Sequence record: PZ049694.1
DNA: 64,000 nt
From: a phage
Direction: 5' to 3' (one strand)
Shown here: piece by piece, positions 27,320 through 57,543 of the stretch
How positions within the stretch are numbered: the first letter of the stretch is position 1
How the letters are laid out: every line of letters begins with the position of its first letter
Made by a program: the position numbers and the translations under genes
The notes under the pieces: model-generated
Told to the model about the DNA's origin: nothing
Seen by the model: only the letters and a program-made list of their open reading frames with translations
Databases searched by the model: none

Positions 27320-27368
27320 TTATTATCCAATGAGAGAGCATTATACTCTGCTCTCAAGAGTTTGTGCA
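27320..27368 (-). repeat. 47-bp promoter/stem-loop cassette, copy 1
   Basis: ttattatccaatgagagagcattatactctgctctcaagagtttgt; near-identical to 57498-57543; -10 TATAAT on minus strand inside inverted repeat gagagca...tgctctc. Confidence 0.65.
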
Positions 27369-27608
27369 TTATTCCGTGATAAGATAATGTAAATAGTTTG
27401 CTTGACGAACACTGATATCAACACCCATATCAAAGATACCTTTATAGAACGGGTATTTGTTTTCAGTAGAATCTAGACTAAAAGCCTTTCCACCACAACT
27501 AACGGTAATAGCATCAGTTAAAGTGTCATATACAAACTTAATAGTTGAGCCATTCACTACGACTTCAAGACGTTTTTTCGATGTAATAATGTCTAATTCT
27601 TGTTCCAT
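27369..27608 (-). CDS. hypothetical protein (79 aa)
   Basis: Minus-strand ORF. Confidence 0.5.
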   Translation of the reverse strand: MEQELDIITSKKRLEVVVNGSTIKFVYDTLTDAITVSCGGKAFSLDSTENKYPFYKGIFDMGVDISVRQANYLHYLITE

Positions 27609-27671
27609 GATATTTTCCTCATTTTAAGACGATAGGAAGATAATAACATGTCTTCCTATCGTTGTATATTA

Positions 27672-27884
27672 TTAACCGAACTTTTTAGCGCCTTTCCAGC
27701 CTTCGTACATAGTTGCGCAAGTCAATAGCACAGCATGTTGACATTCTTTGTATTTGTAAATCCAGAACCAACGTAAAAAGTCTTCATCCTCAACACCGTT
27801 GAGTTTCATATTGGCAAAGAATTCGGCACGTTCTTCACGAAGTTGCCATGACACAATATTTTCAGGATTCATTTTGTGTTCCAC
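27672..27884 (-). CDS. hypothetical protein (70 aa)
   Basis: Minus-strand ORF. Confidence 0.45.
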   Translation of the reverse strand: MEHKMNPENIVSWQLREERAEFFANMKLNGVEDEDFLRWFWIYKYKECQHAVLLTCATMYEGWKGAKKFG

Positions 27885-28096
27885 GCCCCATTTTCATCGA
27901 TGAACTTAATCCAGTCATTTACAGACCATTTAGTTGTATCACCCTTTGGATTAGCATTTAAAGTATATAATCCCTGCTTAAAAAGCATTCGTTTGATGTT
28001 CATAATTTCCTCAACTGTAACGATAACATTCGTTAGCTTTACGTTTGGCTTCAGTATGAGAAGTATTATAATCATAATCTTCTTTACTGTAAACAT
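27869..28096 (-). CDS. hypothetical protein (75 aa), hydrophobic N-terminus
   Basis: Overlaps the 28011-28331 ORF; true start uncertain. Confidence 0.4.
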   Translation of the reverse strand: MFTVKKIMIIILLILKPNVKLTNVIVTVEEIMNIKRMLFKQGLYTLNANPKGDTTKWSVNDWIKFIDENGAWNTK

Positions 28097-28331
28097 CTTT
28101 TTTCAACTTACGAACTTCTTTGCGGAGTTGTCGATTCATTTCGTTCTTGACTTCGGAATCAACGCCTTTCATACGTTTCCATTTATCTGAGCGGAAAATG
28201 TTTTCAACCATGTCTTTGTGGCTAACACCGTCAGGAGCTTTACGTTTACCAAAATAGTCATAATCACGAACTTTCAAATCTTTACGACGATACGTTTTAC
28301 CCATAAGTACCTCAGAGGTTGATTGATACAA
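28011..28331 (-). CDS. hypothetical basic protein (106 aa)
   Basis: Lys/Arg-rich minus-strand ORF. Confidence 0.45.
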   Translation of the reverse strand: MYQSTSEVLMGKTYRRKDLKVRDYDYFGKRKAPDGVSHKDMVENIFRSDKWKRMKGVDSEVKNEMNRQLRKEVRKLKKDVYSKEDYDYNTSHTEAKRKANECYRYS

Positions 28332-28560
28332 TACGTTTGATAAAATTCACTTCACTTACTGAAAGGTCTTTAAGACCGATTGATTCTAAACGCTGAGTAA
28401 GAGTCAACATTGGGATATAGTCCCATTGTGTTTTAGACGTTTGATAAGTACGGACGCCATTAGCAATTTCAACATGCAAATCTGAAATGGTAACGAATAC
28501 TAGACGCTCATCATTAACTTTAAGGGTTAGAACAACTTTCTTTGAATCTAAACTAATCAT
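28312..28560 (-). CDS. hypothetical protein (82 aa)
   Basis: Minus-strand ORF. Confidence 0.45.
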   Translation of the reverse strand: MISLDSKKVVLTLKVNDERLVFVTISDLHVEIANGVRTYQTSKTQWDYIPMLTLTQRLESIGLKDLSVSEVNFIKRIVSINL

Positions 28561-28901
28561 GGCTTAATTTCCTTAGCAATTGAACAGAAGATACCACGGT
28601 CACAAAGCATTTCACCAATTTCTGGATATTTGATTGAACGGTACCAAACATCCAGGCTTGAAACTCTGGTTATCTGTACTGCATTACCGTTGACAGAATA
28701 GTACTGGTCGACCTTAATTTCTTTATCTTCAATTGTCATTTTATTTTCCTCTATAGTAGATGGTTTAATCTTAACACATCTATTGAGGATGTAAACTGTT
28801 TTATGAAAATATTTTTTGATTTGAGAGTGGCACAAGGAGATAGTGAAGTGAAGATTCCAATGGATTATATTAGAAATGAGATAAAGAAGACCAGGCGGCA
28901 C
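28557..28901 (-). CDS. hypothetical protein (114 aa)
   Basis: Minus-strand ORF. Confidence 0.45.
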   Translation of the reverse strand: MPPGLLYLISNIIHWNLHFTISLCHSQIKKYFHKTVYILNRCVKIKPSTIEENKMTIEDKEIKVDQYYSVNGNAVQITRVSSLDVWYRSIKYPEIGEMLCDRGIFCSIAKEIKP

Positions 28902-28905
28902 CTGG

Positions 28906-29229
28906 TCAATCTTCTATGATATCGGAGTCATATCCTAATGAAATCAAGGACTTTTTAAACTCTGCAATATTCTTTTGTTTCTTATCATTTAAAAATATGA
29001 CAGGATAACGAATATTAAGTGAAGTGAATCCTGCACGTTTAGCAAGAGATACGATTAAAGGACGGTCATATTCAATCTTACCATTATTAGTGAGGACTTT
29101 ATAAAATGTATAAGGAGCATTGAGCTCCTTTAAAAGTTTTGTAACAGTATAACATCCCGGACAACGTCCTACTTCTTCAGGGATGCCATAAATTTCAATC
29201 TTGTTCTTTAAGTTCGAGTTTTGTTCCAC
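28906..29229 (-). CDS. thioredoxin-fold redoxin (NrdH/glutaredoxin-like)
   Basis: IEIYGIPEEVGRCPGCYTV with CxxC active site; track ORF trimmed to a candidate GTG start with AAGGA SD; start uncertain. Confidence 0.5.
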   Translation of the reverse strand: MEQNSNLKNKIEIYGIPEEVGRCPGCYTVTKLLKELNAPYTFYKVLTNNGKIEYDRPLIVSLAKRAGFTSLNIRYPVIFLNDKKQKNIAEFKKSLISLGYDSDIIED

Positions 29230-29512: not shown

Positions 29513-29514
29513 AA

Positions 29515-29730: not shown

Positions 29731-29840
29731 ATTTACCCTTAATTAACTAAGCATTGATAAACACCAAACTATACTGCGAATAAAATTCTGGACCAAAACG
29801 AAAAATCATATCATTTATAGTATCCATAATGTAATTCAAT

Positions 29841-32632: not shown

Positions 32633-32634
32633 AT

Positions 32635-32814
32635 TTAATAAATGTTATAAAAGTCACGATGGAAACGTTTGTATTGGCGAATCATTCTTTTAGTAGGACG
32701 TGTTACCGAAATGATTGAAGTCCTCATGTTCGGATTGTTTGGAGCACCAATTATAACAAATTTCCAAGATTTTTGACCGTTTGTTCTTTCGCCAAAAAAT
32801 AATGCAGTTTTCAT
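32635..32814 (-). CDS. small basic protein (59 aa), RPTKR family
   Basis: C-terminus ISVTRPTKRMIRQYKRFHRDFYNIY; paralog of 33239-33436; below track cutoff. Confidence 0.35.
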   Translation of the reverse strand: MKTALFFGERTNGQKSWKFVIIGAPNNPNMRTSIISVTRPTKRMIRQYKRFHRDFYNIY

Positions 32815-32823
32815 AATAGGCCC

Positions 32824-33237
32824 TTAACTTAAACGTCTTTCTAAATATTCAATGTATTCCGCTGCGGCTTGCATCAGATTACCTTCATAACCGTCATTAT
32901 TTTCTTGGGCGGCTAATTTAGCTAAAGCATAAGAAATACGTTCACCTTCGAATTCGCCAAGTCCACCATCACAAACTACTTGGTCAATTTCTTCGAGTTC
33001 ATCTATTGAATGGGATTCCCAGAAGCACCAAAGAGAAGTATCACGGTCATAGATGCAAAGTTTCTCACCTGTGTTCAACATCACTTCGATAATGCCATGG
33101 TCGCCATAACCATCTTCGGTAGTAGTACCAATTACCTTGATGATCGTATCTTTCTTTAATTCAGGAAACTTATCTTGGAGTTCTTCGTCTTCTTTAACAA
33201 TCTTGAACCATTTACCGCGAGTTTCAGAAATATTCAT
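32824..33237 (-). CDS. hypothetical protein (137 aa)
   Basis: Minus-strand ORF flanked by the two RPTKR-family ORFs. Confidence 0.5.
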   Translation of the reverse strand: MNISETRGKWFKIVKEDEELQDKFPELKKDTIIKVIGTTTEDGYGDHGIIEVMLNTGEKLCIYDRDTSLWCFWESHSIDELEEIDQVVCDGGLGEFEGERISYALAKLAAQENNDGYEGNLMQAAAEYIEYLERRLS

Positions 33238-33238
33238 A

Positions 33239-33436
33239 TCAATATTCTCTATAAAAGTTACGATGAGAACGTTTAGCTTTGCGAAGCTGACGTTTAGTAG
33301 GACGAACTGTAAATGGTTGTCCAGAGAAAAAATTTGGTTCAGTTTTAATCAACACATACCAATCGTGTTCGCCGCTTTTTAATAAACGATATAACAATTT
33401 AACTTGCATAATAATCTCTTCCCATTTCCATATCAA
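33239..33436 (-). CDS. small basic protein (65 aa), RPTKR family
   Basis: C-terminus FTVRPTKRQLRKAKRSHRNFYREY; DNA about 70 percent identical to the 32635-32814 copy with mainly third-position differences. Confidence 0.4.
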   Translation of the reverse strand: MIWKWEEIIMQVKLLYRLLKSGEHDWYVLIKTEPNFFSGQPFTVRPTKRQLRKAKRSHRNFYREY

Positions 33437-34855: not shown

Positions 34856-35160
34856 TATAATGTTCTCTCAAATTTGTGGAAGCATTTACGGCATTTCAAT
34901 TTCAAGTTATCAGTGGTCCAGTTAACCAGTTGGACTTGGATAGTTCCACATTCCGGACATGGATGTTTTGCTGCCGATTTGGCAGCATTTTCACGTCGTT
35001 CAACCATTTTCATTATTTCGTTCCATGCCGGAGGAACGAACTCTTCTTCACCGTGGATTTTATCTCGCTGAACAAATTCAATCTTTGAACTATCGTCAAT
35101 AAACTTAACCAAGCCATGATTAGTGCTCATATCAATATCCTCTAAAAGACGTAGTTTCAT
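34855..35160 (-). CDS. zinc-ribbon protein (101 aa)
   Basis: CPECG...CRKC four-cysteine ribbon at the C-terminus. Confidence 0.5.
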   Translation of the reverse strand: MKLRLLEDIDMSTNHGLVKFIDDSSKIEFVQRDKIHGEEEFVPPAWNEIMKMVERRENAAKSAAKHPCPECGTIQVQLVNWTTDNLKLKCRKCFHKFERTL

Positions 35161-36110
35161 TATAACACCTCAATGGCATTTCGTAAGCCATCCGCTTTCG
35201 CATTCAGAGCTTTTAACGATTTAGTTTGTTCTGCAATCTGGGCTTCGACTTCTTTCAGACGAGATTTGAGATATTCGCGTTCTTCTCTTAAGTTATCAAC
35301 TTTTTCTGCTTTAGGCTCTTTAATAGGCTTAGGCTTATACTCATTAGGGTTCTTCAACTTAATTTGAATGCGAGAACTGTATAACATTGAACCGTTATCT
35401 TCGGTTTCGCTGAACATTTCAACAACATCCATAGTCTGTAATATCATACGAAGTTTATAAGACAGCGAACTAACGGTTTTGTTGCGCTTATTAATTTCTT
35501 CGGCTTTCATGGTACCGAGATTACGTGAGTAGTAATAAGGAACCTGGATATCAATTGACAATGATGCGTTACCATTACCAGTTGGTTTGAATACTGCAGT
35601 AACCCAATCTTTAACATGAACTTTATTTGTACGACCGTCGCCGCCTGTGAATAATTTACGTGAATGTTTAAAAAGCATATTCACTTGGTTATTGAATTCA
35701 CAAGCAAATTTATCAGCAAATTTAGTTTCAGGAATGGTAGATAACCAATCAGCCAAATGAGTCTTTTTAACATCGTTAATAATAGTAAATTCAACTAAAT
35801 CAGTTTTAGATGTCACAGATTTAATAAAGCTCGGCTTCATAAAGTTTTTAATGTTATCGCGAGCTACAGTAGAAGATAATAAACGAGAACGTTTGAACCA
35901 TTGAAGCAGTGTCCCTAATGAATGAGAATACGCATTCTGAGTATCTTTACAGATATGATTTTCTTGGCCTGTGTATGTACCAAAATCGCGAAGAATACCA
36001 CTTACTACAACTCGGTGTGGAACATCAAATCCTAATGAACCAGAAGCACGTTGGGCATGAACGTTAGCGATAAGACCTGCAAAATAATCAACATAATGTG
36101 AACGTGTCAT
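35160..36110 (-). CDS. hypothetical protein (316 aa) with C-terminal coiled coil
   Basis: C-terminal heptad-rich segment REEREYLKSRLKEVEAQIAEQTKSLKALNAKADGLRNAIEVL. Confidence 0.55.
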   Translation of the reverse strand: MTRSHYVDYFAGLIANVHAQRASGSLGFDVPHRVVVSGILRDFGTYTGQENHICKDTQNAYSHSLGTLLQWFKRSRLLSSTVARDNIKNFMKPSFIKSVTSKTDLVEFTIINDVKKTHLADWLSTIPETKFADKFACEFNNQVNMLFKHSRKLFTGGDGRTNKVHVKDWVTAVFKPTGNGNASLSIDIQVPYYYSRNLGTMKAEEINKRNKTVSSLSYKLRMILQTMDVVEMFSETEDNGSMLYSSRIQIKLKNPNEYKPKPIKEPKAEKVDNLREEREYLKSRLKEVEAQIAEQTKSLKALNAKADGLRNAIEVL

Positions 36111-36138
36111 AATATTTTCCTCTCGTTAAGATAGAAAG

Positions 36139-36167
36139 ATTATACTCCAACCATCCTTGGTTGTAAA
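36139..36167 (-). promoter_or_regulatory. early-type sigma70 promoter cassette
   Basis: Minus strand -35 TTTACA, 17-bp spacer, -10 TATAAT; block ttatactccaaccatccttggttgta repeated at 37132. Confidence 0.55.
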
Positions 36168-36172
36168 CTGAT

Positions 36173-37105
36173 TTATGATTTTAATGCATTCATTGCGTTA
36201 AAAAGTTTAGAGTACTGCAACTGGAGCTTGGTAACTACTTGTTGAGCATCACGAAGCTTAGCTTGTGCTTTGTCAAGTTCAACAGACAGTTGGTCCACAG
36301 TGCCTTTGATTTGATTATAATAGTAATCTTCGGCAGGAAGAAGACCGTTAGAGATTTCCAGTTTAGTCGACGGTGTGCCGTTAAACATAACAGGTTGTGC
36401 TGAAGCTGCATTAATCTTACCGATAGTTGGGGCGACAATAATTGACGCTTCGAACGTTGCATTTTCCTTTTTAAGATTTTGATAGTATTCAGAGTCTTTG
36501 TGCCACCATGGCGCAGGAACCTTTTTACCAATAGATACACGAGCCTGGATAGCGATATGGCCCTTATTCTTGATAGGGTTGATAATATTAAGCTCACGAG
36601 AATAAATTGCTTTAATCTGGTGAATATTATCACCTAGCACTTCCAACGCTTGGTGGAATACACGAGCAACGTTATCATTCTTAGGTTTATACGTAAGAGT
36701 GAACTCGTTCTCACTGATAACCATGATTTCCAACTTATCGTAAGTATATTTCAAATGTTTCATGTTAATTGCTTGAGGACGAATACGAGAAGCAATGGCC
36801 ATCAGATTGTTAAGGTTATTCCGGAACTGCTTAGCGAAATATTGTCCTTCACCGCCAATACAAAAATTACGAAGTTTCTGTTTGGCTAATAAACGGCTGA
36901 ACTCACCATTTTTAATGAACTCTTTAACGGGTGTGTTAGTAACGCATTCAAATTGAGTAAACTTACGAGAATTAATCCCATAATACGAACAGATTTCCTC
37001 AATCTCTTCAGGAGTCTTTACAGGCATACGGATAGGATTAGGTCCTGGGGTATATGCGTTCGAGGTAAATTCTTTGATAAGTTCTCTACGTGTAATAGAA
37101 GCCAT
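36173..37105 (-). CDS. hypothetical protein (310 aa) with C-terminal coiled coil
   Basis: C-terminal coiled-coil segment LSVELDKAQAKLRDAQQVVTKLQLQYSKLFNAMNALKS. Confidence 0.55.
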   Translation of the reverse strand: MASITRRELIKEFTSNAYTPGPNPIRMPVKTPEEIEEICSYYGINSRKFTQFECVTNTPVKEFIKNGEFSRLLAKQKLRNFCIGGEGQYFAKQFRNNLNNLMAIASRIRPQAINMKHLKYTYDKLEIMVISENEFTLTYKPKNDNVARVFHQALEVLGDNIHQIKAIYSRELNIINPIKNKGHIAIQARVSIGKKVPAPWWHKDSEYYQNLKKENATFEASIIVAPTIGKINAASAQPVMFNGTPSTKLEISNGLLPAEDYYYNQIKGTVDQLSVELDKAQAKLRDAQQVVTKLQLQYSKLFNAMNALKS

Positions 37106-37131
37106 TTTATATTCCTCATGTTGAAAAATTT

Positions 37132-37160
37132 ATTATACTCCAACCATCCTTGGTTGTACA
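37132..37160 (-). promoter_or_regulatory. early-type sigma70 promoter cassette (repeat of 36139-36167)
   Basis: Identical block tattatactccaaccatccttggttgta; -10 TATAAT, -35 TGTACA. Confidence 0.5.
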
Positions 37161-38156
37161 TCATTCCTTAAGAAGTTTTACTACTTGAATAAGATTAGCT
37201 CGTTCTGTTTTATTTTTACCGTTTAAGCCTGCTAATCGTGAGATTTCATCATCAGTCTGTTGAATAGTTACATTAAGTTCGTTAATCAAAGCTTCAAAGT
37301 ATTTGATTTGCTCAGCATGTTTTGATTCAAATTTTTGAACCGGAATAACGTCTTGGTTTAGTTCATCAATAAGGTCTTTAAGAGCATCTTCTTGGTTGAT
37401 ATCATATTCAACTTCTTTTATTTCTTCAACGAGCTCGTCTTTATATCTAACGTCTTTTAGTCCTGGTGCTGGTCCTGAAATCTCTTCTTTAAGAGTACAA
37501 ACATATCCAATACGGTATCCAATACCGTCTCGCTTGATAACAACTTCGTCAATAAATCCACAATGTTTAAGACCGGAGCCGATTAGGTCAAAATATCCTT
37601 GACGTCGTCCTTCAAACGTTACACGAACTACTAAGACAGTTTTACCTGCAACCTTTTGAAGCTCACATTTATAAAAGTCTGTTGAACCTGAATAACGTGG
37701 ATGAGTTTTAAAGTTCATCTGACGATCTAGACCCATTTGTAAGCGTGCTGATACGGCCATAAAACGTGTTTGGTTCTCGTTAAGATGAGCAACAATCCAT
37801 TTCAAAGGCATTTTACACTGTTCACGACCGAACAAATCAGTACGTCCTAGATTACGCAGGATGTTGTTAGAGTTAATCATCGACAGAACGTTAAGTTTAT
37901 TCAGCGCGCTGAAGATTCCATCGGCCATTGATTTTCCGTAACCTTTACACGCTTTAATAAGCGCTCGCGGTAGATTAGTATAGATTTCAGACGGCATATG
38001 AAAATCAAATTTACTAGTCAGTAATTGATGAACTTGGATAGCAATTTGCTCATAATTAAGTGCTCTGCGATCATTATGGTCTTTAAACCACACTTTAATC
38101 TGTGAAGCACATAAACCGTTAATTTCATGTTTTACCGCATCAGATGTAATGCTCAT
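37161..38156 (-). CDS. hypothetical protein (331 aa) with C-terminal coiled coil
   Basis: C-terminal coiled coil; third member of a tandem set of similarly sized genes. Confidence 0.55.
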   Translation of the reverse strand: MSITSDAVKHEINGLCASQIKVWFKDHNDRRALNYEQIAIQVHQLLTSKFDFHMPSEIYTNLPRALIKACKGYGKSMADGIFSALNKLNVLSMINSNNILRNLGRTDLFGREQCKMPLKWIVAHLNENQTRFMAVSARLQMGLDRQMNFKTHPRYSGSTDFYKCELQKVAGKTVLVVRVTFEGRRQGYFDLIGSGLKHCGFIDEVVIKRDGIGYRIGYVCTLKEEISGPAPGLKDVRYKDELVEEIKEVEYDINQEDALKDLIDELNQDVIPVQKFESKHAEQIKYFEALINELNVTIQQTDDEISRLAGLNGKNKTERANLIQVVKLLKE

Positions 38157-38218: not shown

Positions 38219-38746
38219 TTATGCGTGAACCGTCTTTAAACGTTCTTCAAATTTCCGAAGAGTACTAATACGTTCTGCTTTCTGTTTTGTATAGTTTGCA
38301 ATACGTTCTGAAGTGAGAGCGTATCGTTCGTTTACTGTTTCTTTCATGAAGTCAGGGATTTCACGAGAAGCTTTAATTTCATCAAACTTATCGAGTACTG
38401 CCTGGTCTTCAGCGATTAAATTTTCGTACATCTCGATATCTTTCTTGATAAACTCGATATCTTCCTGGGTTACTTTGGATAAACGAGATGCTTTATCCTT
38501 TTTGTACTGCTCGTTAGTTTCACGAGACCAGAATAATGTACGTTTTTTGTTAGTGTTTTTGTAGACTTCCACAATTCCAACTGAATCGATGATAGCAATC
38601 CAATTCCAGCGAGATTTGAAAATCTGACCTCCGTCCACGGTAATCTCGTTACCATAAGCAACGTCATTAAAGAACTTGCTTTGTGCTTCAGATTTAAATT
38701 TACCGTCGTTATAATTTACCAGGTTGAAAATATCTTTAGCGTTCAT
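38219..38746 (-). CDS. hypothetical protein (175 aa)
   Basis: Minus-strand ORF. Confidence 0.5.
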   Translation of the reverse strand: MNAKDIFNLVNYNDGKFKSEAQSKFFNDVAYGNEITVDGGQIFKSRWNWIAIIDSVGIVEVYKNTNKKRTLFWSRETNEQYKKDKASRLSKVTQEDIEFIKKDIEMYENLIAEDQAVLDKFDEIKASREIPDFMKETVNERYALTSERIANYTKQKAERISTLRKFEERLKTVHA

Positions 38747-38773
38747 GTTTTACCTCCAGTAGTTGATAGGTCT

Positions 38774-38802
38774 ATAATAACATAACCATAGACCTTGTAA
38801 AC
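38774..38802 (-). promoter_or_regulatory. early-type sigma70 promoter cassette
   Basis: Minus strand -35 GTTTAC, -10 TATTAT; inverted repeat ggtctat...atagacc. Confidence 0.45.
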
Positions 38803-39230: not shown

Positions 39231-40232
39231 TTATTTCAGTAAAGTTACTTCAGAGATTTCCTCCCAACCATCTTTATCAGTTGAAATAAAATCTGCTACG
39301 TAAAGAGCCGTACGTAATGATACATTGCGAAGACGAGATACGTTAGCCTTCATCCAGGACAATGCTTTATACGTTTCTGCATCCGTCAGACCACGTTTCT
39401 GCATCATGTCAGTAGATAATATTACATCTTCAACTCGAACCATAATCTCTTCATTAGAGTGTACTCCAAGGTCGAGATACACTGAACGAGATACTAAAGC
39501 TTGAAGGTGTGGGGCAAGTTTCGAACCGCGTTCTAACTCTTTATCGATATCAACGTTTGTAATGAAAACGATAGTACCTTCAAACTCAAATTCTTTATCA
39601 ATACCCTTATCATCGAGATAAGATGACGCAGTGCTCCAACAAACTTTGCGTTTATCTCCAGTATCTAATGCTGCTTTAAGAAGGTTCAAGATGTCCATAT
39701 CTGAGAATACGTCAACGTCGTCGATTAAGAGAACGCTGTCTGCATCACGGTTGAGCCAAAGTTGTTCGTAAAGGCCGATACCAGAGATTTTACCATTAAT
39801 GCTTTTGTATTTGATGAAACCATTATCATTAGCGTTATTAAGTGCTTTATCCAGAGAATACGTCTTACCAATACCAGCTGCACCTGAAATAATGAGTGAA
39901 CGAATTTTACCATCGATAATGCCATTCGTCATCATGTTCATTACTTTAAAGCGTTTGTTGATACGAGTTTTCATATCTTCAGTGCTTTCAACGACTGCAA
40001 CTGGTGATGTCTCAACTCCTTCCATTACGATGTCTGATTTGAAGACCCATACTCCACGTTCAGAACCGTCAATCATAACGAAGATTTTACCATCACCTAA
40101 GTGGGAACATTCAGGATTAAGCTTTGCCGGGAACCAGGTCTTTGTGGCAACATAAGAACCAGAGATTTCGTTATTACGATAGATACCTTTTTTGATTTGA
40201 ACGTTGAACATTTTATTCTCCAATTTACTCAT
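39231..40232 (-). CDS. P-loop NTPase (AAA-like ATPase) of unknown function
   Basis: 333 aa; Walker A GAAGIGKTY; Walker B VLLIDDVD. Confidence 0.6.
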   Translation of the reverse strand: MSKLENKMFNVQIKKGIYRNNEISGSYVATKTWFPAKLNPECSHLGDGKIFVMIDGSERGVWVFKSDIVMEGVETSPVAVVESTEDMKTRINKRFKVMNMMTNGIIDGKIRSLIISGAAGIGKTYSLDKALNNANDNGFIKYKSINGKISGIGLYEQLWLNRDADSVLLIDDVDVFSDMDILNLLKAALDTGDKRKVCWSTASSYLDDKGIDKEFEFEGTIVFITNVDIDKELERGSKLAPHLQALVSRSVYLDLGVHSNEEIMVRVEDVILSTDMMQKRGLTDAETYKALSWMKANVSRLRNVSLRTALYVADFISTDKDGWEEISEVTLLK

Positions 40233-40309
40233 TTCGTTTCGATAGGTCTATAGTATCATATCCTAAAAGCATGTACACTACTTTTTTAAAAATATTTTAA
40301 CCCCCTAAA

Positions 40310-42679: not shown

Positions 42680-42983
42680 TTAAAGTTTCAACAAAATTCA
42701 CCAAATCATTCTGACGAGAATCAACTTGTTTTTCATAAAAGTCTCCACAGTCATTTACTGCATGATAAGCTACATCATTTAAATCTGAATCAGCTTCACG
42801 TAAGTCATGGATAAGGTCCATCAATTTATTAGCTTGTTCACGGGTCATTTTACCATACTCGTTTCAATAAGATTCACTATGCCGTTTACCATGTTATAAG
42901 TAAACATCGGATAATTGTATTGTACTACAACATAAGCGATAAGCAAAAGTTTCATTTTGTTCTCCGTTTGTTTTGATAGGACT

Positions 42984-43012
42984 ACTATAACATAGTCCTA
43001 CCAAGATGTAAA
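42984..43012 (-). promoter_or_regulatory. early-type sigma70 promoter cassette
   Basis: Minus strand -35 TTTACA, 17-bp spacer, -10 TATAGT; inverted repeat aggacta...tagtcct. Confidence 0.5.
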
Positions 43013-43249
43013 CTACCGATTGTGTTTTAAATGTTGATAAAGTTCTTCAACTTGTTTAGGGTCCAAAACAATTAGGTCATTTTCTTGGCGAAGATAAATC
43101 CATCCCTTATCCCCAGGACCATTTTTACAAAACATCACCGTCGTCATATCGTCATCTTCAGCGCTTTCAGGTAAAAGTTCAAGTACACCGTCTTCAGATT
43201 TTCCAGTATAATCGTAAAGCATAATATCCTCACATAATCTCGTTAACAT
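43013..43249 (-). CDS. hypothetical protein (78 aa)
   Basis: Minus-strand ORF. Confidence 0.45.
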   Translation of the reverse strand: MLTRLCEDIMLYDYTGKSEDGVLELLPESAEDDDMTTVMFCKNGPGDKGWIYLRQENDLIVLDPKQVEELYQHLKHNR

Positions 43250-43409
43250 ACATTTGCAATTCGGAGTGGGCTTCGGCCATCTTTTTCATAGCTCTGTTAA
43301 TGTCGATGTCTCCATCTTCGCAACCATGAGCATTTTCCCAATCAGATACCGCATTAGCGTACTCTTCAATCAAAAACATTAACTTAGAAATTTTTTCTTT
43401 ACGTGACAT
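43230..43409 (-). CDS. hypothetical protein (59 aa)
   Basis: Track ORF has a TTG start inside the promoter; trimmed to internal ATG with GAGGAG SD. Confidence 0.4.
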   Translation of the reverse strand: MSRKEKISKLMFLIEEYANAVSDWENAHGCEDGDIDINRAMKKMAEAHSELQMYVNEIM

Positions 43410-43436
43410 AACGTTCTCCTCTAGTAAGTAAGGACT

Positions 43437-43465
43437 ACTATAACACAACCTGAGGAGAAGTAAAC
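43437..43465 (-). promoter_or_regulatory. early-type sigma70 promoter cassette
   Basis: Minus strand -35 GTTTAC, 17-bp spacer, -10 TATAGT. Confidence 0.45.
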
Positions 43466-47038: not shown

Positions 47039-47067
47039 TTTTGATTTCTCCTCTAGTTGACAGGTCT

Positions 47068-47096
47068 ATAGTAACACAACTAGAGGAGAAGTAAAC
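47068..47096 (-). promoter_or_regulatory. early-type sigma70 promoter cassette upstream of regB
   Basis: Minus strand -35 GTTTAC, 17-bp spacer, -10 TACTAT; inverted repeat aggtcta...tagagg. Confidence 0.5.
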
Positions 47097-49260: not shown

Positions 49261-49590
49261 TTATACTCTAGGCTTTTGAGCTTGTTTGGTATTGGATTCC
49301 CATGCGGCTTTGGTAATTTTGTTAGCGGCATAACCAAAGGCACTAGATAGAACACCTTTAGAGTTGAATACATCCAATCCAATAAGTACACTTGCTGTGT
49401 TAAATTTAGGAGCAAAGTACGCATTAGTTTTAGAAAGAGCTTTTTTCAATTCAGGGTCTTGAACCAAGCCATCAAAAACGCCTTTACCATTTACTTTATA
49501 TGTTACTTTGGGATTTTTAGCTTCTTCGATAGCAGCTTTCTGTTCCGCAGATAATGTAACTTCAGTAATAAATTCTTGATATGTTTTCAT
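49261..49590 (-). CDS. internal head protein (IPII-like)
   Basis: N-terminal capsid-targeting sequence MKTYQEFITE typical of T4 internal proteins; early promoter upstream. Confidence 0.65.
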   Translation of the reverse strand: MKTYQEFITEVTLSAEQKAAIEEAKNPKVTYKVNGKGVFDGLVQDPELKKALSKTNAYFAPKFNTASVLIGLDVFNSKGVLSSAFGYAANKITKAAWESNTKQAQKPRV

Positions 49591-49620
49591 TTTTGTTTCC
49601 TTGTTTGTTTTGATAGAGTA

Positions 49621-49649
49621 ATTATACCATATTAATACTTAAGCGTAAA
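49621..49649 (-). promoter_or_regulatory. early-type sigma70 promoter
   Basis: Minus strand -35 TTTACG, 17-bp spacer, -10 TATAAT. Confidence 0.5.
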
Positions 49650-49681
49650 CTGTTTAAGCTTTACCATCGCAACCTTTTTCC

Positions 49682-50095
49682 TTAGTAAATTGATTTACCA
49701 TAGTATTTGTACCAAGTAGGACGTTGAGCAATTTTTTCATCTAAACGAGCTTGACTTATCGCAATGGACGCTTCGGTCGGGACATAATTATTACGAAATT
49801 CGGCAGGGATGTCGGAAATATCTTGGACAGTCGTGTCCTTGATTTTGAAACCACGTTTCAAGCATTCAGCGATTAGCTCGATTTGACGTAAACGTAAAAA
49901 TTCGAGTTTGTCGTAAAAGAATGTTACGTGACCTGTGCCTAAGATAAATGCTGGAGAGATTTTAAAATCCTTTACACGTTTACCGTTTTGAACATGTTTA
50001 CGGACTGCACCAAATACGCGTGGTAATTCACGATACTCAGCCATAAGATGTTGGTCGGTCAGTTCAGAAACAAGTGTTAAATTGATACGAGTCAT
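49682..50095 (-). CDS. denV: Endonuclease V (pyrimidine-dimer DNA glycosylase, DenV)
   Basis: [35 protein letters not shown] near-identical to remembered T4 DenV; start moved to internal ATG. Confidence 0.9.
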
Positions 50096-50122
50096 AATTT
50101 CCTCCAAGTAGTTGATGAATGT

Positions 50123-50152
50123 ATAGTATCAAAGTCCTTGGAGGAAGTAAAC
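50123..50152 (-). promoter_or_regulatory. early-type sigma70 promoter cassette upstream of denV
   Basis: Minus strand -35 GTTTAC, 18-bp spacer, -10 TACTAT. Confidence 0.45.
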
Positions 50153-52813: not shown

Positions 52814-52814
52814 A

Positions 52815-53120
52815 TTATTTTCCTCGACATTCTTTAATGAAATTTTCTAGATTGGTAGATTCAATAGCTTTTTTACGAGCTTCTGCGTGTTCTTCTTCGG
52901 ACAATTTACGTTTATAATTGACCCAGACATTATGGTCGAAACCAGTCGTGGCATATAATAACAATGCTCCAACGAATAGCAAAAACGGCGATAAGAATAC
53001 AAAACCAGGAACACCATCCATATCGTAAGCCTTTTGTAATACTGCAACAGAAAGAGCTACGTAAAAAGGTGATGCAAGTATTGTTAAAAGACCAATTCGG
53101 TTGGTTTCTGTTAATTTCAT
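52815..53120 (-). CDS. membrane protein (101 aa)
   Basis: Two hydrophobic helices. Confidence 0.5.
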   Translation of the reverse strand: MKLTETNRIGLLTILASPFYVALSVAVLQKAYDMDGVPGFVFLSPFLLFVGALLLYATTGFDHNVWVNYKRKLSEEEHAEARKKAIESTNLENFIKECRGK

Positions 53121-53146
53121 AATATTCTCCTCAAGTTGATAGGACT

Positions 53147-53175
53147 ACTATAACATAGCCCTATCAGTTTGTACA
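53147..53175 (-). promoter_or_regulatory. early-type sigma70 promoter cassette
   Basis: Minus strand -35 TGTACA, 17-bp spacer, -10 TATAGT; inverted repeat aggacta...tagccct. Confidence 0.45.
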
Positions 53176-53176
53176 C

Positions 53177-53377
53177 TTATTTTGACATTTCTTCGATGTC
53201 ACGACGATACCCATCACGAACTTCACGAAGAGCTTCAAGGCCACACATAGGCTCGATACCAGTAATGTGAACTTGATTAATCTGATACTCTACATCTTCT
53301 AACTGAGCGAAAACATAACGACGTTCTGCTGCACAACCAGGTTTAGCTTTACCGAAACGTTTATTCAAAGTAGTCAT
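53177..53377 (-). CDS. hypothetical protein (about 66 aa)
   Basis: Track GTG start trimmed to internal ATG. Confidence 0.4.
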   Translation of the reverse strand: MTTLNKRFGKAKPGCAAERRYVFAQLEDVEYQINQVHITGIEPMCGLEALREVRDGYRRDIEEMSK

Positions 53378-53415
53378 TTTTATATCTCCATTCACTCATT
53401 TGTTTTGATAGGTCT

Positions 53416-53444
53416 ATAGTATCAACAACTACAGACCTTGTAAA
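53416..53444 (-). promoter_or_regulatory. early-type sigma70 promoter cassette
   Basis: Minus strand -35 TTTACA, 17-bp spacer, -10 TACTAT. Confidence 0.5.
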
Positions 53445-53457
53445 CTGTTTTGTGAAA

Positions 53458-54414: not shown

Positions 54415-54438
54415 AATATTTTCCTCGGATTAATTAAC

Positions 54439-54690: not shown

Positions 54691-54706
54691 TTAATTTGAT
54701 AGGACT

Positions 54707-54735
54707 ACTATAACATAGCCCTATCTTGTTGTAAA
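54707..54735 (-). promoter_or_regulatory. early-type sigma70 promoter cassette
   Basis: Minus strand -35 TTTACA, 17-bp spacer, -10 TATAGT. Confidence 0.5.
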
Positions 54736-54740
54736 CTGTT

Positions 54741-54938: not shown

Positions 54939-54947
54939 ATGGTTTCC

Positions 54948-55220: not shown

Positions 55221-55229
55221 AATGATTCC

Positions 55230-55535
55230 TTAGCACATCGCAGAAGACGAAACCCAAGCACCTTCAGTAATAACGTAACCATTACCTTCACGCTTAACAT
55301 CGCCACCATTATTTTCAATTTCATCTTTCATCCACTGGGATACGATTTCACCCTTAGGATAATAAGTACGACCGCTACCATAATCACCTACAGAAAATGA
55401 TACGGCATATTGGTCCGCGATCTTTGTTGCTTCTTCTTCGATACGTTCAGCTTGATTCAGAAGTTTATAAATTGCATCTGAAGCGGATTTGGCATCATTA
55501 AACTCTGGTACTTTAATTTCAATAATCTTACTCAT
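55230..55535 (-). CDS. small protein (101 aa), GWxSSSxxC family
   Basis: C-terminus GAWVSSSAMC; N-terminus MSK... similar to the 54948 copy. Confidence 0.45.
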   Translation of the reverse strand: MSKIIEIKVPEFNDAKSASDAIYKLLNQAERIEEEATKIADQYAVSFSVGDYGSGRTYYPKGEIVSQWMKDEIENNGGDVKREGNGYVITEGAWVSSSAMC

Positions 55536-55891
55536 TTTCTACATTCCTTAATAAAGTTTTCGATTGTTTCATTTTCACGTCTAGCTAGGAGTTCATTATA
55601 ACTAATCATTTGAGAAGCGTAAACCTTTTTATTTTTCTTGTTATGGTTTATAAAATCGTAGTAAAAATAGACTACAGTACAAAATGATGCGATGGATGCA
55701 AAGGCTTGGGTATACCGTAAGTCCCGCCATTGGTCTATGAATCCGCCAGTGTTACCTATAAATCCTAATACAACTCCGTCAATAAGAAATCCAACTAATC
55801 CAAAGGCAAATCCCATGCCAATACTCATAATAAAAATTAGAATGTTCTCACCAAGAGAAGGCCATACGGTTAAGAGTTGAGGCTTTTGCAT
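55532..55891 (-). CDS. membrane protein (119 aa)
   Basis: Multiple hydrophobic helices. Confidence 0.5.
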   Translation of the reverse strand: MQKPQLLTVWPSLGENILIFIMSIGMGFAFGLVGFLIDGVVLGFIGNTGGFIDQWRDLRYTQAFASIASFCTVVYFYYDFINHNKKNKKVYASQMISYNELLARRENETIENFIKECRK

Positions 55892-56295
55892 CTTATTTCC
55901 TTAACGAATTCCATAGCTTCTTCATATTCATACTTTTTAACAGCTTCATCATACTGAGCTTGGGCTTTTGCGCACTGAACTTTCCACTCACGAACTCGGG
56001 CTCTGTGATGACGGCCTTGGTACCAATATCCCACCCAGTTAATAGGCATTAATAAAAATGGTACAATAAACGACCCGGCTATAATAAGTAAAAACACTGC
56101 ATCAGACGATATAACTTTATTGGAATCTAAAATAGCTCCTATAATCATAAAGATTAAAAATGCTAAAGCTAAAATAGGACCAAACAACACTTCATTAGGA
56201 ATTAATTTACGTTTGTATTCGTATGCCCAGGGCTTAATTGGCATGTACAGGGTTGGCTTTGACATATTCTCTACATTCCATAATAAATTGCTCAA
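55870..56295 (-). CDS. membrane protein (141 aa)
   Basis: Hydrophobic helices; start may be internal. Confidence 0.45.
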   Translation of the reverse strand: MSNLLWNVENMSKPTLYMPIKPWAYEYKRKLIPNEVLFGPILALAFLIFMIIGAILDSNKVISSDAVFLLIIAGSFIVPFLLMPINWVGYWYQGRHHRARVREWKVQCAKAQAQYDEAVKKYEYEEAMEFVKEIRCKSLNS

Positions 56296-56830
56296 GGATT
56301 AAATTGTTAGTGAAATTAGGACTAACAACCATGGTTTCATAAAGCGCATCAATAGCACTTAAAGCATCAACTCTCTTAAGCAAAGGCTTGCCTTCATACA
56401 TAGTTTCAGAATCGACGATTAAAGTGAAGTAGTATTTTTTATTATTGACCAGAACTTCTGTATCAATATAAAACATGTTAGACCTTAAAAGCTTGTCTCT
56501 AAAGCCTACGTAATCATCTGAACGTTCACTGATATATTCCCATTCAGTGTTTAAACAACAAACAGACCACGTAGGAGCAACGAAATCAGTGAATCTAATA
56601 TCATGATCTGCAACTAATTTAGCAATAGCTCCGATATCATGAATCATAATACCTGGGGCTAATAAAGATTTTCGGCGATTTGCATATTCAGTTGTCTCAT
56701 AAGAAGCTGACCAGTACCATTTACGTCCAGTTGCAACATATCGTAATGAATCAACTAAAGACGTAGGTGGATTTACCTTATTTCGGAACTCTTCGAACAT
56801 TGAGTCAATATCATTATTTTGGTTTCGCAT
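56234..56830 (-). CDS. hypothetical protein (about 198 aa)
   Basis: Track TTG start trimmed to ATG with AAGGAG SD. Confidence 0.5.
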   Translation of the reverse strand: MRNQNNDIDSMFEEFRNKVNPPTSLVDSLRYVATGRKWYWSASYETTEYANRRKSLLAPGIMIHDIGAIAKLVADHDIRFTDFVAPTWSVCCLNTEWEYISERSDDYVGFRDKLLRSNMFYIDTEVLVNNKKYYFTLIVDSETMYEGKPLLKRVDALSAIDALYETMVVSPNFTNNLILEQFIMECREYVKANPVHAN

Positions 56831-56853
56831 GTTAACTCCTTTATTATCCAAAA

Positions 56854-56871
56854 GGAGGACCGGAGTCCTCC
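56854..56871. other. intergenic stem-loop
   Basis: ggaggac-cgga-gtcctcc with U-rich flanks on both strands. Confidence 0.4.
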
Positions 56872-56879
56872 GTATTATT

Positions 56880-57473
56880 TTATTTCAAAGAGTTAATATA
56901 TTCTTGTACATCGGCAGAAGTGGTTTCGACACCGGTTGGAGTGCCATTGAACGTTTCAACACGAGTCAGAGTGTCTTCGATATCAACCTTAGTCAGTGCA
57001 GCGATTTCAATTACATCATCAGCCGTAGAGATACCAAGGGCATTAGCTGCTCGAGTTTCACGAATGTATTCGAGTTTGATTGCCAGGTTCTGACGAGCAT
57101 CGTCAAGTTCAACCACCTTACGAGCAATTTCAATTCGCATAGCGGCATACCCGTCAGCTTTTGTATTAAGTTGTTCGGCAGTTCGACGATACAGAAGACC
57201 AAGCTTGGCATGCATGGTAACATCTTGTCCTTCAGCCAGGAGCTTACGAATTTCACGTTCCTTAGAAGCGGCTTGCTTATTCTTTTCAATAACAAGTTCG
57301 CGAATACGTTTTTCTTCATTAATAGATTTAACAGAAGCCGTTTTTAGTTCTTTGATTTGGGTAATCAACTTATCTGCAGCTGCGTTATACTGTTCTTCGA
57401 CAGTCAGATTTTTAGCCATAGCAGTACCCAGTTTAGTGCGGATGAATTCAACAAGTTTCTTCAGTGTGTTCAT
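56880..57473 (-). CDS. coiled-coil protein (about 197 aa)
   Basis: Track TTG start trimmed to internal ATG; heptad-rich throughout. Confidence 0.5.
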
Positions 57474-57497
57474 ATTATTACCTTTCAATTGGTGGTT

Positions 57498-57543
57498 TAT
57501 TATCCAATGAGAGCATTATACTCTGCTCTCAAGAGTTTGTAAA
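57498..57543 (-). repeat. promoter/stem-loop cassette, copy 2
   Basis: ttattatccaatgagagcattatactctgctctcaagagtttgt; minus strand -35 TTTACA, 17 bp, -10 TATAAT; near-identical to 27320-27368. Confidence 0.65.

Follow-up and report, generated by a model that had tools for sequence, protein, structure and literature searches.

Probable early-promoter cassettes with selected hairpins in the early region of an RB69-like T4-type phage

What are two nearly identical promoter-like sequences, each wrapped in an inverted repeat, doing 30 kb apart in front of different phage genes? The question arises from a 64,000-nt stretch of record PZ049694.1 (hereafter the window), which is 96–99% identical to Mosigvirus genomes and represents the early region of a coliphage of that genus (RB69/JS09-like); all its genes are on the minus strand, in the order 41-43-55-nrdD-tk-regB-e-57A-1. 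The pair and the family around it are very probably strong early promoters of the T4 type, here in an RB69-like phage, built into small hairpins that are under selection, and they belong to an already known type of element, PeSL.

The pair and its family

Both copies are present on the minus strand where the earlier note had placed them, at 27319-27369 (cassette 1) and 57496-57544 (cassette 2); 55 nt align locally, and a search for the 47-mer with up to three mismatches found nothing in shuffled sequence. The copies had been called identical apart from a 2-bp indel, which is not quite so, as besides this indel (CT, in the 3' stem arm) the -35 hexamers differ by two substitutions, with TGCACA in cassette 1 (27363-27368) versus TTTACA in cassette 2 (57538-57543). 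Each has a 17-bp spacer and a -10 TATAAT (27340-27345 and 57515-57520, respectively). The stem GAGAGC/GCTCTC(TC) round the -10 of cassette 1, followed by TTGGATAATAAA, has a ΔG of -11.4 and a z-score of -1.6, and the corresponding stem TGAGAGC/GCTCTCA of cassette 2, again followed by TTGGATAATAAA, has a ΔG of -13.8 and a z-score of -3.8; the marginal fold and the degraded -35 of cassette 1 count against the reading that we favor. Either copy occupies the interval from one gene's stop codon to the SD/ATG of a second gene, and the genes behind them indeed differ: cassette 1 lies between RB69ORF075c and gp55.2 (26968..27300, downstream), and cassette 2 abuts the stop codon of a frd.3-like gene (57544..57771), with e.6 (56880..57473) downstream. 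The two represent a single old promoter subtype, ACAAACTCTTG-stem-CAGAGTATAAT-stem, which in T4 drives motB.

Motif search confirmed the family within the window: TTTACW-N16-17-TAYWDT matched 20 times against 1.72 expected, a number reached in none of 100 shuffles, and 19 of the 20 matches were on the minus strand (a 19:1 bias). Curation gave 28 promoter cassettes, 27 of the early type and one of the MotA type. The claimed family of more than 20 members thus holds for the promoter layout, but not for the inverted repeat round the -10, which had been attributed to at least 20 and is found in only about 14. The common anatomy comprises an A-rich UP region, a GTTTAC -35, a spacer of 16–17 bp often ending in TGn (present in 20 of the 28), a TAnnnT -10 and a conserved start region, CCTATCAA. 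This anatomy fits the published definition of PeSL elements, to which the cassettes had been likened, namely a sigma-70-like early promoter preceded by A-rich sequence, together with a stem-loop that in most cases overlaps the -10 or lies between -35 and -10, in the intergenic interval from the upstream stop to the downstream SD/ATG (PMC2839356, section 14; PMC4122927). The T4 promoters of regB, denV, ipI, ipII, ipIII, e.7 and trna.4 have the same architecture. Orthology suggests that the cassettes are active promoters; the orthologous regB promoter of T4, for instance, is characterized in the literature as typical of early promoters (PMC3014915).

Hairpins among the 28 cassettes

About two-thirds of the cassettes contain a hairpin: about 14 round the -10, 8–9 in which promoter sequence is paired with the downstream Shine-Dalgarno (SD) sequence, and two within the spacer, with about six having none. 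Against dinucleotide shuffles, z is -2.5 or lower in 14 of the 20 folded cassettes, and free energies range from -12 to -22 kcal/mol. All cassettes described below are on the minus strand, with ΔG and z in brackets.

Stems round the -10 occur at 27628..27669 (-35 ATATACA, -10 TATTAT, 11 bp, ACGATAGGAAG/CTTCCTATCGT; -16.7, -4.2), upstream of RB69ORF075c (27369..27608); at 38762..38802 (11 bp, AGGTCTATGGT/ATTATAGACCT; z -2.5), upstream of nrdC.8 (38219..38746); at 53404..53445 (11 bp, AGGTCTGTAGT/ACTATAGACCT; -16.4, -3.8), upstream of a 66-aa ORF (53177..53377); and at 61993..62034, an early-promoter cassette with GTTTACA, TGn, TACTAT and a 12-bp stem (AGGATGATGGTG.../...CATCCT; -16.6, -4.2), upstream of ORF 61683..61970. 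The MotA-box middle-type promoter at 21637..21680 (CGCTTTA, 12 bp, TATAAT), upstream of 45.2, also has a 10-bp stem round its -10 (GATGTGGTTA/TGACCACATC; -13.9, -3.2) and is PmSL-like. A 12-bp stem with one G·U, TGATAGGGCT/AGTCCTATCA, is found at 53135..53176 (-18.2, -4.1; ORF 52815..53120 downstream). Further stems belong to the subfamilies GATAGGACT/AGTCCTATC (61638..61679, an early promoter with a 12-bp stem and its -10 TATAGT partly in the loop; -17.7, -4.7), GATAGGGCT/AGTCCTATC (54695..54736, 11 bp including a sense-strand G·U pair; -16.0, -3.9), TAGGACT/AGTCCTA (42972..43013, 13 bp; -18.6, -3.7) and GGACT/AGTCC (3835..3876, bulged, z -1.9; ORF 3524..3817 downstream).

In the SD-masking class, the fold predicted for read-through RNA has the SD itself as its 3' arm, with a 5' arm that comes from the discriminator or from the part of the spacer adjoining the -35. 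A 14-bp stem (TTCTCCTCTAGTTG/CAACTAGAGGAGAA) joins the promoter spacer to the regB SD at 47046..47096 (-21.6, -3.6; ΔG of the T4 ortholog, -23.1), another of 14 bp (TTCTCCAGTAGTTG/CAACTACTGGAGAA) is found at 5337..5393 (-21.5, -5.0; ORF 5021..5338 downstream), the spacer sequence TTCCTCCAAG pairs with the SD in CTTGGAGGAA at 50099..50152 (-17.8, -3.8; ORF 49682..50095 downstream), and TTCTCCTC pairs with GAGGAGAA at 43411..43465 (ORF 43230..43409 downstream). At 28747..28797 (GTTTACA...TAAGAT; z -2.6), a TAGATG/CATCTA stem round the -10 is accompanied by an outer SD-masking stem, TCCTC/GAGGA. The cassettes at 36108..36168 (GTTTACA-ACCAAGGATGGTTGGAG-TATAAT; ORF 35160..36110 downstream) and 37111..37161 (ATGTACA-ACCAAGGATGGTTGGAG-TATAAT; ORF 36173..37105 downstream) are identical in their core and have the same hairpin within the spacer; in the latter, a second stem is predicted to mask the SD on read-through RNA.

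No hairpin is found round the -10 at 4146..4187 (early promoter, GTTTACA, TACTAT), nor any at 49609..49650 (early promoter, GTTTACG, TATAAT; ORF 49261..49590 downstream) and 55583..55624 (early-promoter-like, GTTTACG, TATAAT), the last lying within the 3' end of ORF 55532..55891 with the next gene ~60 nt downstream. Gene 55.4 is preceded by another early-promoter-like site (28053..28094, GTTTACA, TATAAT), which lies within the 3' end of gp55.5. Among the remaining early promoters, the hairpin is weak at 40238..40278 (GTGTACA, TACTAT, AGACCTATC; ORF 39231..40211 downstream), structure is weak at 58001..58042 (ATGTACA, TACTAT; ORF 57818..57982 downstream), the hairpin is not significant at 58562..58602 (GTTTACT, TACTAT; z +0.4; ORF 58042..58545 downstream), nor is a small predicted discriminator/SD stem, CTTTCTAT/ATAGAGG, at 4568..4617 (GTTTACA, TACTAT; z +0.6), and the 5' arm is lost at 57788..57829 (ATTTACA, TATAGT, AGTCCTATCAA), upstream of the frd.3-like gene.

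Breakpoints cluster at the cassettes

Comparison with seven relatives at 92–98% identity placed 11 of 40 distinct breakpoints inside the 61-nt cassette territories, which make up 2.5% of the sequence (binomial p = 3e-9). Gene junctions with a cassette were more often breakpoints than the others (12/24 vs 13/85; Fisher p = 8e-4), with an odds ratio of 4–13 when the test was restricted to plastic regions. In one relative, L006, breakpoints fall at 53135..53176, 53404..53445, 55583..55624, 57788..57829 and 58562..58602, as well as at the regB cassette (shared with L001) and at 61638..61679 (shared with L016). Some single ORFs are cleanly gained or lost between cassettes: in L006, the 66-aa ORF between 53404..53445 and 53135..53176 has given way to a single cassette, ORF075c, a single-gene module bracketed by 27628..27669 and cassette 1, is absent from L022, and L016 has an extra cassette and an 82-aa ORF inserted at cassette 2. 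These results support the modular gene shuffling that had been proposed and agree with the variability expected at cassettes among relatives, in line with the view that cassettes mark sites at which related phages have gained, lost or exchanged small genes. Presumably, the shared sequence serves as a substrate for homologous recombination, because many cassettes have 30–55 nt of near-identical sequence in common, and single-gene modules between them would thereby be inserted, deleted or exchanged. The cassettes are not the sole route to indels, since 29 of the 40 breakpoints lie outside them; the pin gene, for example, was lost via a repeat inside paralogous ORFs. Some of the enrichment could also be due to homology simply ending beside fast-evolving genes.

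Selection on pairing and the role of the hairpin

Stem sequence varies from cassette to cassette, with complementarity retained. The mean stem was 6.5 bp within a cassette versus 5.2 bp between cassettes, and none of 5000 permutations reached the observed value. In 18 distinct sequences of the pair's subtype (T4 motB, 55.2 and e.6 loci, IMG/VR), all 126 pair cells (100%) held standard pairs, and sliding one arm by 1–3 columns lowered the proportion to 35–52%. Changes on both sides were found in four of the seven stem pairs, and all 17 one-sided changes gave G·U or U·G on the sense strand; across all loci, mismatches in distinct long stems comprised 14 G·T, four C·A and five others. The regB stem covaries across genera, among RegB proteins of 63–98% identity, and e.6 orthologs have four different cassettes, three with different stems round the -10. 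The stem is therefore under selection. It could be argued that the cassettes are nothing more than strong early promoters, with incidental inverted repeats and a likeness due solely to constraint on promoter elements, as the known consensus of T4 early promoters reaches further than the -35 and -10 (PMC2988021) and about six of the 28 cassettes lack a hairpin. This argument is almost certainly wrong, being largely refuted by the covariation (compensatory double changes and complete pairing in the 18 subtype variants, and the regB stem), and being at odds with the complementarity retained by differing stems and with fold z-scores down to -5.

Our preferred reading of the selected hairpin is as follows. 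Each cassette would drive the small gene immediately downstream, and the spacer of about two-thirds of the cassettes would have evolved complementarity to sequence just past the -10 or to the downstream SD. A read-through transcript from an upstream promoter would fold into a hairpin of 6–14 bp, whereas the cassette's own transcript, starting ~7 nt past the -10, would lack the 5' arm, so that the hairpin would act only on read-through RNA; sense-strand G·U as every intermediate likewise points to RNA. The hairpin would probably be an attenuator, a processing or 3'-end structure or, in some cassettes (that of regB among them), a mask of the ribosome-binding site. We tentatively entertain the alternative that the hairpins are chiefly gates of translation and of exposure to RegB: the promoter-encoded 5' arm would mask the SD (GGAG) on read-through transcripts, so that only the transcript from a gene's own early promoter would be translated and open to RegB, extending to early promoters the late-promoter mechanism of T4 e, soc, 49 and I-TevI. 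Protection of GGAG from RegB by RNA structure is documented (PMC3014915), the T4 regB and denV orthologs are arranged likewise, and the regB stem covaries. Moreover, predicted SD accessibility is much lower on read-through than on own RNA in 8–9 of the 28 cassettes (paired Wilcoxon over all 28, p = 6e-4): 0.00 vs 0.39 for regB, 0.00 vs 0.75 for 5337..5393, 0.00 vs 0.41 for 50099..50152, 0.01 vs 0.68 for both 28747..28797 and 37111..37161, and 0.00 vs 0.53 for 43411..43465, where, however, the fold z is only -0.4. These figures are predictions only, and the gate is inapplicable to about 14 hairpins that end ahead of the SD and to the pair itself (0.53 vs 0.57 for cassette 1, 0.32 vs 0.31 for cassette 2).

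Termination or attenuation of upstream transcripts, the role proposed for PeSL stem-loops, is likewise possible without being probable. An RB49 PeSL stem-loop was as effective as rrnB T1 in lowering expression of a downstream lacZ (PMC2839356), relatives L019-L025 have a canonical terminator, GGGCTTCGGCCC-T6, at the spot of cassette 1 followed by the same GGATAATAAA, and the true terminator behind e.6 is followed by the same TTGGATAATAAA. The stems here, however, lead into AUCAAAAC or AUUGGAUAA and not into U-runs; a classical intrinsic-terminator role is doubtful because no cassette hairpin has a U-tract behind it or was called terminator-like, and none of 22 terminator-like sites in 44–64 kb coincides with a cassette. 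That the inverted repeats work as DNA-level sites (cruciforms, targets of site-specific recombination or operators of a dimeric protein, such as a factor shutting off early promoters), or that the cassettes are small mobile elements, is very unlikely. Although breakpoints cluster at cassettes and the literature gives no mechanism for the shut-off of early promoters (PMC3014915, PMC2988021), the half-sites vary and only their complementarity is conserved, which speaks against a sequence-specific protein, and the intermediates, all sense-strand G·U, are A·C on the other strand, unfavorable for a two-sided cruciform. Neither terminal repeats nor target duplications were found at cassettes, and the junctions are compatible with recombination inside shared promoter sequence. 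As a point against the RNA-level reading, the tolerance of G·T is also compatible with a hairpin in the non-template DNA strand.

Promoter and hairpin cassettes in the window

The two near-identical cassettes lie on the minus strand at 27319–27369, between RB69ORF075c and gp55.2 (cassette 1), and at 57496–57544, between a frd.3-like gene and e.6 (cassette 2). They align over 55 nt, and shuffled sequence contained no match to the 47-mer of the pair with three or fewer mismatches. The earlier note had described the copies as identical apart from a 2-bp indel, each upstream of a different gene; the latter holds (gp55.2 for cassette 1, e.6 for cassette 2), and the 2-bp (CT) indel is present in the 3' stem arm, but "identical" is slightly too strong, because the −35 element also differs by two substitutions (TGCACA vs TTTACA). 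Each copy spans the interval from one gene's stop codon to another gene's Shine-Dalgarno (SD) sequence/ATG, with the layout TTTACA, 17 bp, and TATAAT, and a stem, (T)GAGAGC...GCTCTC(A), surrounds the −10; for this stem, free energies of −11.4 (cassette 1) and −13.8 kcal/mol (cassette 2) are predicted (z-scores, −1.6 and −3.8, respectively). The 12-mer TTGGATAATAAA occurs in exactly three copies on the minus strand (27319–27330, 56840–56851, and 57496–57507; with at most one mismatch, five sites in the window vs 1.3 expected), each directly after a hairpin, that is, cassette 1, the canonical terminator GGAGGACTCCGGTCCTCC-TTTT after e.6, and cassette 2, and may serve as a 5' leader common to these sites or as an anchor for recombination.

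The 64-kb window has a GC content of ~37% with negative GC skew throughout and is 96–99% identical to the Mosigvirus phages JQD51, pEK20, JS09, and HX01. From the JS09 and HY126 annotations, its minus strand has the T4 early and middle gene order, with 41, uvsX, 43, regA, 62, 44, 45, 46, 47, 55, nrdH/G/D, and 49 followed by pin, nrdC, tk, regB, denV/ip, e, nudE, e.x, tRNAs, 57A, 1, and 3. The motif search that had been proposed as a check gave, within the window, 20 matches to the strict pattern TTTACW-N16-17-TAYWDT, compared with 1.72 expected (0 of 100 shuffles reached 20), with 19 of these matches lying on the coding (minus) strand. Using looser patterns and an unbiased repeat search, we curated 28 cassettes, comprising 27 of the early type and one of the MotA-box middle type. 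A TGn extended −10 is found in 20 of the 28, and most have an A-rich upstream region and the conserved start region AG(T/A)CCTATCAA, which fits the C-rich −3 to −1 described for RB69 early promoters (Nolan et al. 2006, PMC1524935). Their position is intergenic in 26, the other two (named 55595 and 28065 after their window positions) lying within the last ~60 nt of the upstream ORF. No early cassette was found at 5.4–27.3 kb, 22 kb of core replication genes (41, uvsX, 43, 44, 45, 46, 47, and 55), and 19 lie among small ORFs at 36–62 kb.

The predicted early promoters of the window correspond to the class predicted in RB69, which numbers 57 sites (PMC1524935). They resemble T4 (Hinton 2010, PMC2988021) and RB69 (PMC1524935) early promoters in the GTTTAC −35, the TGn and TAnnnT −10, the A-rich −40s, the C-rich −3 to −1, and the neighbourhoods occupied (regB, denV, ip genes, e.x, and 55.x); the passages of the two papers that were searched contain no mention of embedded hairpins. 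Promoter activity is predicted indirectly, by orthology with the T4 regB promoter, which is described as a typical early promoter (PMC3014915); for RB49, reporters have been tested (PMC2839356).

A second near-identical promoter pair, 1 kb apart on the minus strand (36139–36168 and 37132–37161), stands upstream of two large nrdC.x-region ORFs and has in common ACAACCAAGGATGGTTGGAGTATAAT and a 6-bp hairpin within the spacer. Three cassettes (minus strand, 40209–40260, 53375–53426, and 61609–61660) have a conserved 5' leader, AAATGAGT(A/G)AAT(T)GGAGA(A/T)ATAAAATG, in which the reading frame of the first ATG does not always match that of the gene, so that this looks like a conserved untranslated motif rather than a start codon. 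In the MotA-box middle-type promoter upstream of 45.2 (21624–21684, minus strand; CGCTTTA, 12 bp, TATAAT), a 10-bp stem encloses the −10 (dG −13.9, z −3.2), resembling the "PmSL" of phage nt-1. That such stems are general to MotA-type middle promoters was rejected, as only one of 13 MotA-like candidates in the window has one.

Cassettes and gene junctions

Comparison with seven related phage genomes of 92–98% identity (L001, L002, L005, L006, L016, L018, and L022) revealed 40 distinct internal homology breakpoints, of which 11 fall inside the 61-nt cassette territories that make up 2.5% of the compared sequence (binomial p = 3e-9). Gene junctions provide a fairer null, and 12 of the 24 cassette-bearing junctions were hit vs 13 of the 85 others (odds ratio 5.5, p = 8e-4), with within-region odds ratios of 3.9 at 26–64 kb (p = 0.015), 5.2 at 36–64 kb (p = 0.012), and 12.7 at 46.8–64 kb (p = 0.0015). 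Individual events are also clean: L006 has one cassette in place of cassette 53416, a 66-aa ORF, and cassette 53147 of the window; ORF075c, between cassettes 27640 and 27340, is absent from L022 and from the related genomes L019–L025; and L016 has an extra cassette with an 82-aa ORF inserted exactly at the stop/−35 junction of cassette 2. Upstream of cassette 2, the frd.3-like gene likewise stands alone with a cassette on either side. The junction enrichment and the cassette-to-cassette gains and losses (L006, L016, and L022) support the proposed link to modular gene shuffling, for which gene content between cassettes across phages was to be the check.

Indels also arise elsewhere than at the cassettes: 29 of the 40 breakpoints are outside them, and in the IMG/VR relative L018 pin was lost when two paralogous small ORFs recombined within a 55-nt repeat that they share, leaving a chimeric ORF. 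A mobile (MITE-like) element was rejected as an identity for the cassettes, which have neither terminal repeats nor target duplications. Lambdoid morons are ORFs flanked by their own promoter and terminator. The modules here are like them in being single accessory genes with their own expression signals that come and go between relatives, and unlike them in that promoter and hairpin are fused in one ~50-nt element common to neighbouring modules; novel ORFs of T4-type phages are also distinguished from morons by Nolan et al. (PMC1524935), because their GC content is the same as that of the genome.

Three paralogous small basic ORFs (52–65 aa; 32635–33436 and 4620–4778) bear the C-terminal motif RPTKRxxRxxKRxxRxFY, and pin, the gene for a Lon protease inhibitor, lies between two of them. 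Between the two tRNA genes (60024–60175, minus strand), the close relative HY126 has ~0.8 kb of extra sequence, indicating that the tRNA cluster is variable too. In the sequences L007/L008, two tandem promoter-like elements, an e.7-type hairpin cassette and then TTGACG...TATACT, stand upstream of the e.6 ortholog (~9890–10000), and may be the remnant of a cassette-to-cassette deletion.

Pairing of the cassette arms

Among 20 folded cassettes, 14 had z-scores of −2.5 or lower. The stem wraps the −10 in ~14 cassettes, with the 5' arm in the spacer and the 3' arm over the discriminator and start site, and reaches 12–13 bp (~ −16 to −18 kcal/mol). In 8–9 cassettes, the fold predicted for read-through RNA, that is, a transcript arriving from an upstream promoter, masks the SD with stems of up to 14 bp (−21.6 kcal/mol); the 5' arm is then in the spacer just past the −35 (5–6 cassettes, e.g., TTCTCC... 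with ...GGAGAA) or in the discriminator region (e.g., 36139 and 37132, with 4588 as a weak case). Cassettes 36139 and 37132, counted in the SD-masking class, are also the two with a stem within the spacer, and ~6 of the 28 have no significant structure. The expectation of at least 20 cassettes with an inverted repeat around the −10 is therefore borne out for ~14, the rest being SD-masking, in-spacer, or hairpin-free. In a scan of the window with Rfam 15, the two tRNAs alone reached gathering scores and no cassette matched any family.

Pairing of the cassette arms is under selection, as indicated by within-cassette pairing, compensatory changes, and the stems at e.6 and regB. The longest perfect stem averaged 6.5 bp within a cassette vs 5.2 bp across cassettes, a difference matched in 0 of 5000 permutations. 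The subtype to which the pair belongs, ACAAACTCTTG-[arm]-CAGAG-TATAAT-[arm], is old; it precedes motB in T4 (stem GGGACC/GGTCCC) and, in T4-like contigs of IMG/VR, orthologs of 55.2 or e.6, where the stems include GAGAGA/TCTCTC, GGGAGC/GCTCCC, and GGGGTC/GACCCC. In an alignment of 18 distinct variants (A1), all 126 pair cells of the 7-bp helix are paired, compared with 35–52% when one arm is slid by 1–3 columns. Both sides have changed in four of the seven pairs, and the one-sided changes are G.U or U.G on the sense strand in 17 of 17 cells, with no A.C. Over all loci, distinct stems with at least eight Watson-Crick pairs and one internal mismatch gave 14 G.T/T.G, 4 C.A/A.C, and 5 other mismatches; this count and the alignment of the subtype replaced an ambiguous earlier count on "best stems" of at least six pairs (10 G.T, 5 C.A, and 13 other), where many short stems are probably spurious. 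Moreover, e.6 orthologs have four different cassettes, three with differing stems around the −10 (GAGAGC/GCTCTC, AGGCTC/GAGCCT, and TGTAGGAG/CTCCTACA) and a fourth, T4-type, with little stem. The regB stem keeps its pairing through differing sequences among phages with RegB proteins of 63–98% identity. This was read from the individual sequences, since RNAalifold on a MAFFT alignment of regB leaders, with the arms out of register, recovered the SD/anti-SD pairs alone.

The asymmetry of the wobble pairs suggests that it is the sense strand that folds. The simplest candidate is read-through RNA, since a transcript from the cassette itself would begin ~7 nt past the −10, without the 5' arm; conceivably, the non-template DNA strand forms the hairpin instead. 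A protein operator or palindrome was rejected, since pairing alone, and not the half-site sequence, is conserved. Also rejected was the idea that subtype copies in the same genome evolve strictly in concert, as genomes such as IMG/VR 2706795401 and 2974739009 carry copies with differing stems.

Relation to known elements and possible roles of the hairpin

Promoter-early stem-loop (PeSL) elements have been described in RB49/phi1 (Arbiol et al. 2010, PMC2839356) and in PST/T4 and nt-1/KVP40 (Comeau et al. 2014, PMC4122927). Like these, the window elements are composites of a sigma-70-type early promoter, with A/T-rich upstream sequence, and a stem-loop in or next to it, mostly between the boxes or over the −10; they are intergenic, extending from the upstream stop to the downstream SD/ATG, concentrated among small accessory ORFs in hyperplastic regions, and located at the junctions where close relatives differ by insertion, deletion, or replacement. 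Unlike the published PeSLs, they belong to an RB69/JS09-like Mosigvirus lineage, their stems are not polyG/polyC, and their −35 is GTTTAC rather than TTGACA. The window elements, known here from sequence, would be the PeSLs of the Mosigvirus lineage; the resemblance drawn in the earlier note extends to promoter, stem-loop, position, clustering, and indel junctions, and its overall interpretation is supported. In the literature examined, we found no account of the subtype that the pair has in common with T4 motB, of the predicted SD-masking subset of early promoters (regB among them), of the junction statistics, or of quantitative evidence from covariation and sense-strand wobble; these points sharpen the PeSL picture without changing it. 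Promoter-hairpin cassettes as sites of accessory-gene gain, loss, and exchange are thereby confirmed, with statistics, in another T4-type lineage, which helps the annotation and comparison of the hundreds of sequenced RB69-like therapeutic phages.

The function of the hairpin is the weakest part of this account. In the PeSL papers the stem is termed a terminator or attenuator, and one RB49 stem acted in this way in a lacZ reporter (PMC2839356). In favour of such a role, L019–L025 have, at the position of cassette 1, a canonical terminator (GGGCTTCGGCCC-T6) and then the same GGATAATAAA, and the TTGGATAATAAA that comes after both cassettes also comes after the true terminator downstream of e.6. 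Against it, the cassette stems are followed by ATCAAAAC or ATTGGATAA instead of the U-tract that directly follows the GC-rich stem of a Rho-independent terminator, and none was called terminator-like, which makes a classical intrinsic-terminator role doubtful. True terminators do occur nearby (e.g., 56854–56871), but none of the terminator-like sites at 44–64 kb coincides with a cassette. The sense-strand G.U pattern points to an RNA role, and a subset of the stems is predicted to mask the SD.

We tentatively propose, as one possibility, that the hairpins are RNA devices rather than terminators, the fate of a gene being set by the promoter from which its transcript comes. With its 5' arm encoded in the spacer of the promoter itself, the hairpin would form on read-through RNA only and would hide the GGAG SD from ribosomes and RegB (regB, denV-type, and several ORFs); alternatively, a protective 3' hairpin might be left on the upstream message after cleavage. 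RNA structure is known to protect GGAG from RegB (PMC3014915). In predicted folds of read-through RNA, pairing leaves almost none of the SD free in 8–9 of the 28 cassettes, including regB, 5365, 50123, 43437, 28768, 37132, and 36139, and the SD is far more accessible when the transcript comes from the cassette itself (regB, 0.00 vs 0.39; 5365, 0.00 vs 0.75; 50123, 0.00 vs 0.41; paired Wilcoxon p = 6e-4 for all 28 cassettes). No such masking is predicted for cassettes 1 and 2 (0.53 vs 0.57 and 0.32 vs 0.31, respectively).

The SD-masking subset, which excludes cassettes 1 and 2, is predicted to resemble T4 e, soc, 49, and I-TevI, whose RBS-sequestering hairpins have the promoter inside or just past the 5' arm, so that folding conceals the SD in long upstream transcripts and the 5' arm is missing from the proximal one (Uzan & Miller 2010, PMC3014915). 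In those T4 genes, late promoters (TATAAATA) delay translation, whereas here the embedded promoter is early (regB, denV-type, 5365, 50123, and others). If the proposal is true, this mechanism would be extended to a whole class of early promoters, and many early genes would be translated from their own immediate-early transcript only. Two results go beyond the papers examined: compensatory change, with sense-strand G·U as the sole kind of intermediate, maintains the stems, and in a conserved subset, to which the regB promoter belongs, promoter sequence is predicted to pair with the ribosome-binding site downstream; together, these provide a concrete, testable hypothesis for stem-loop function that may bear on the time restriction of early gene expression. 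We found no usable T4 transcription-start or 3'-end maps in the literature. The same architecture is present in T4 itself (L108, NC_000866.4 58000-76000), where the early promoters of regB, denV, ipI, ipII, ipIII, e.7, and trna.4 lie inside predicted hairpins of −12 to −23 kcal/mol, with the SD sequence as the predicted 3' arm at regB and denV, indicating that the promoter-hairpin feature is general to the T-even group.
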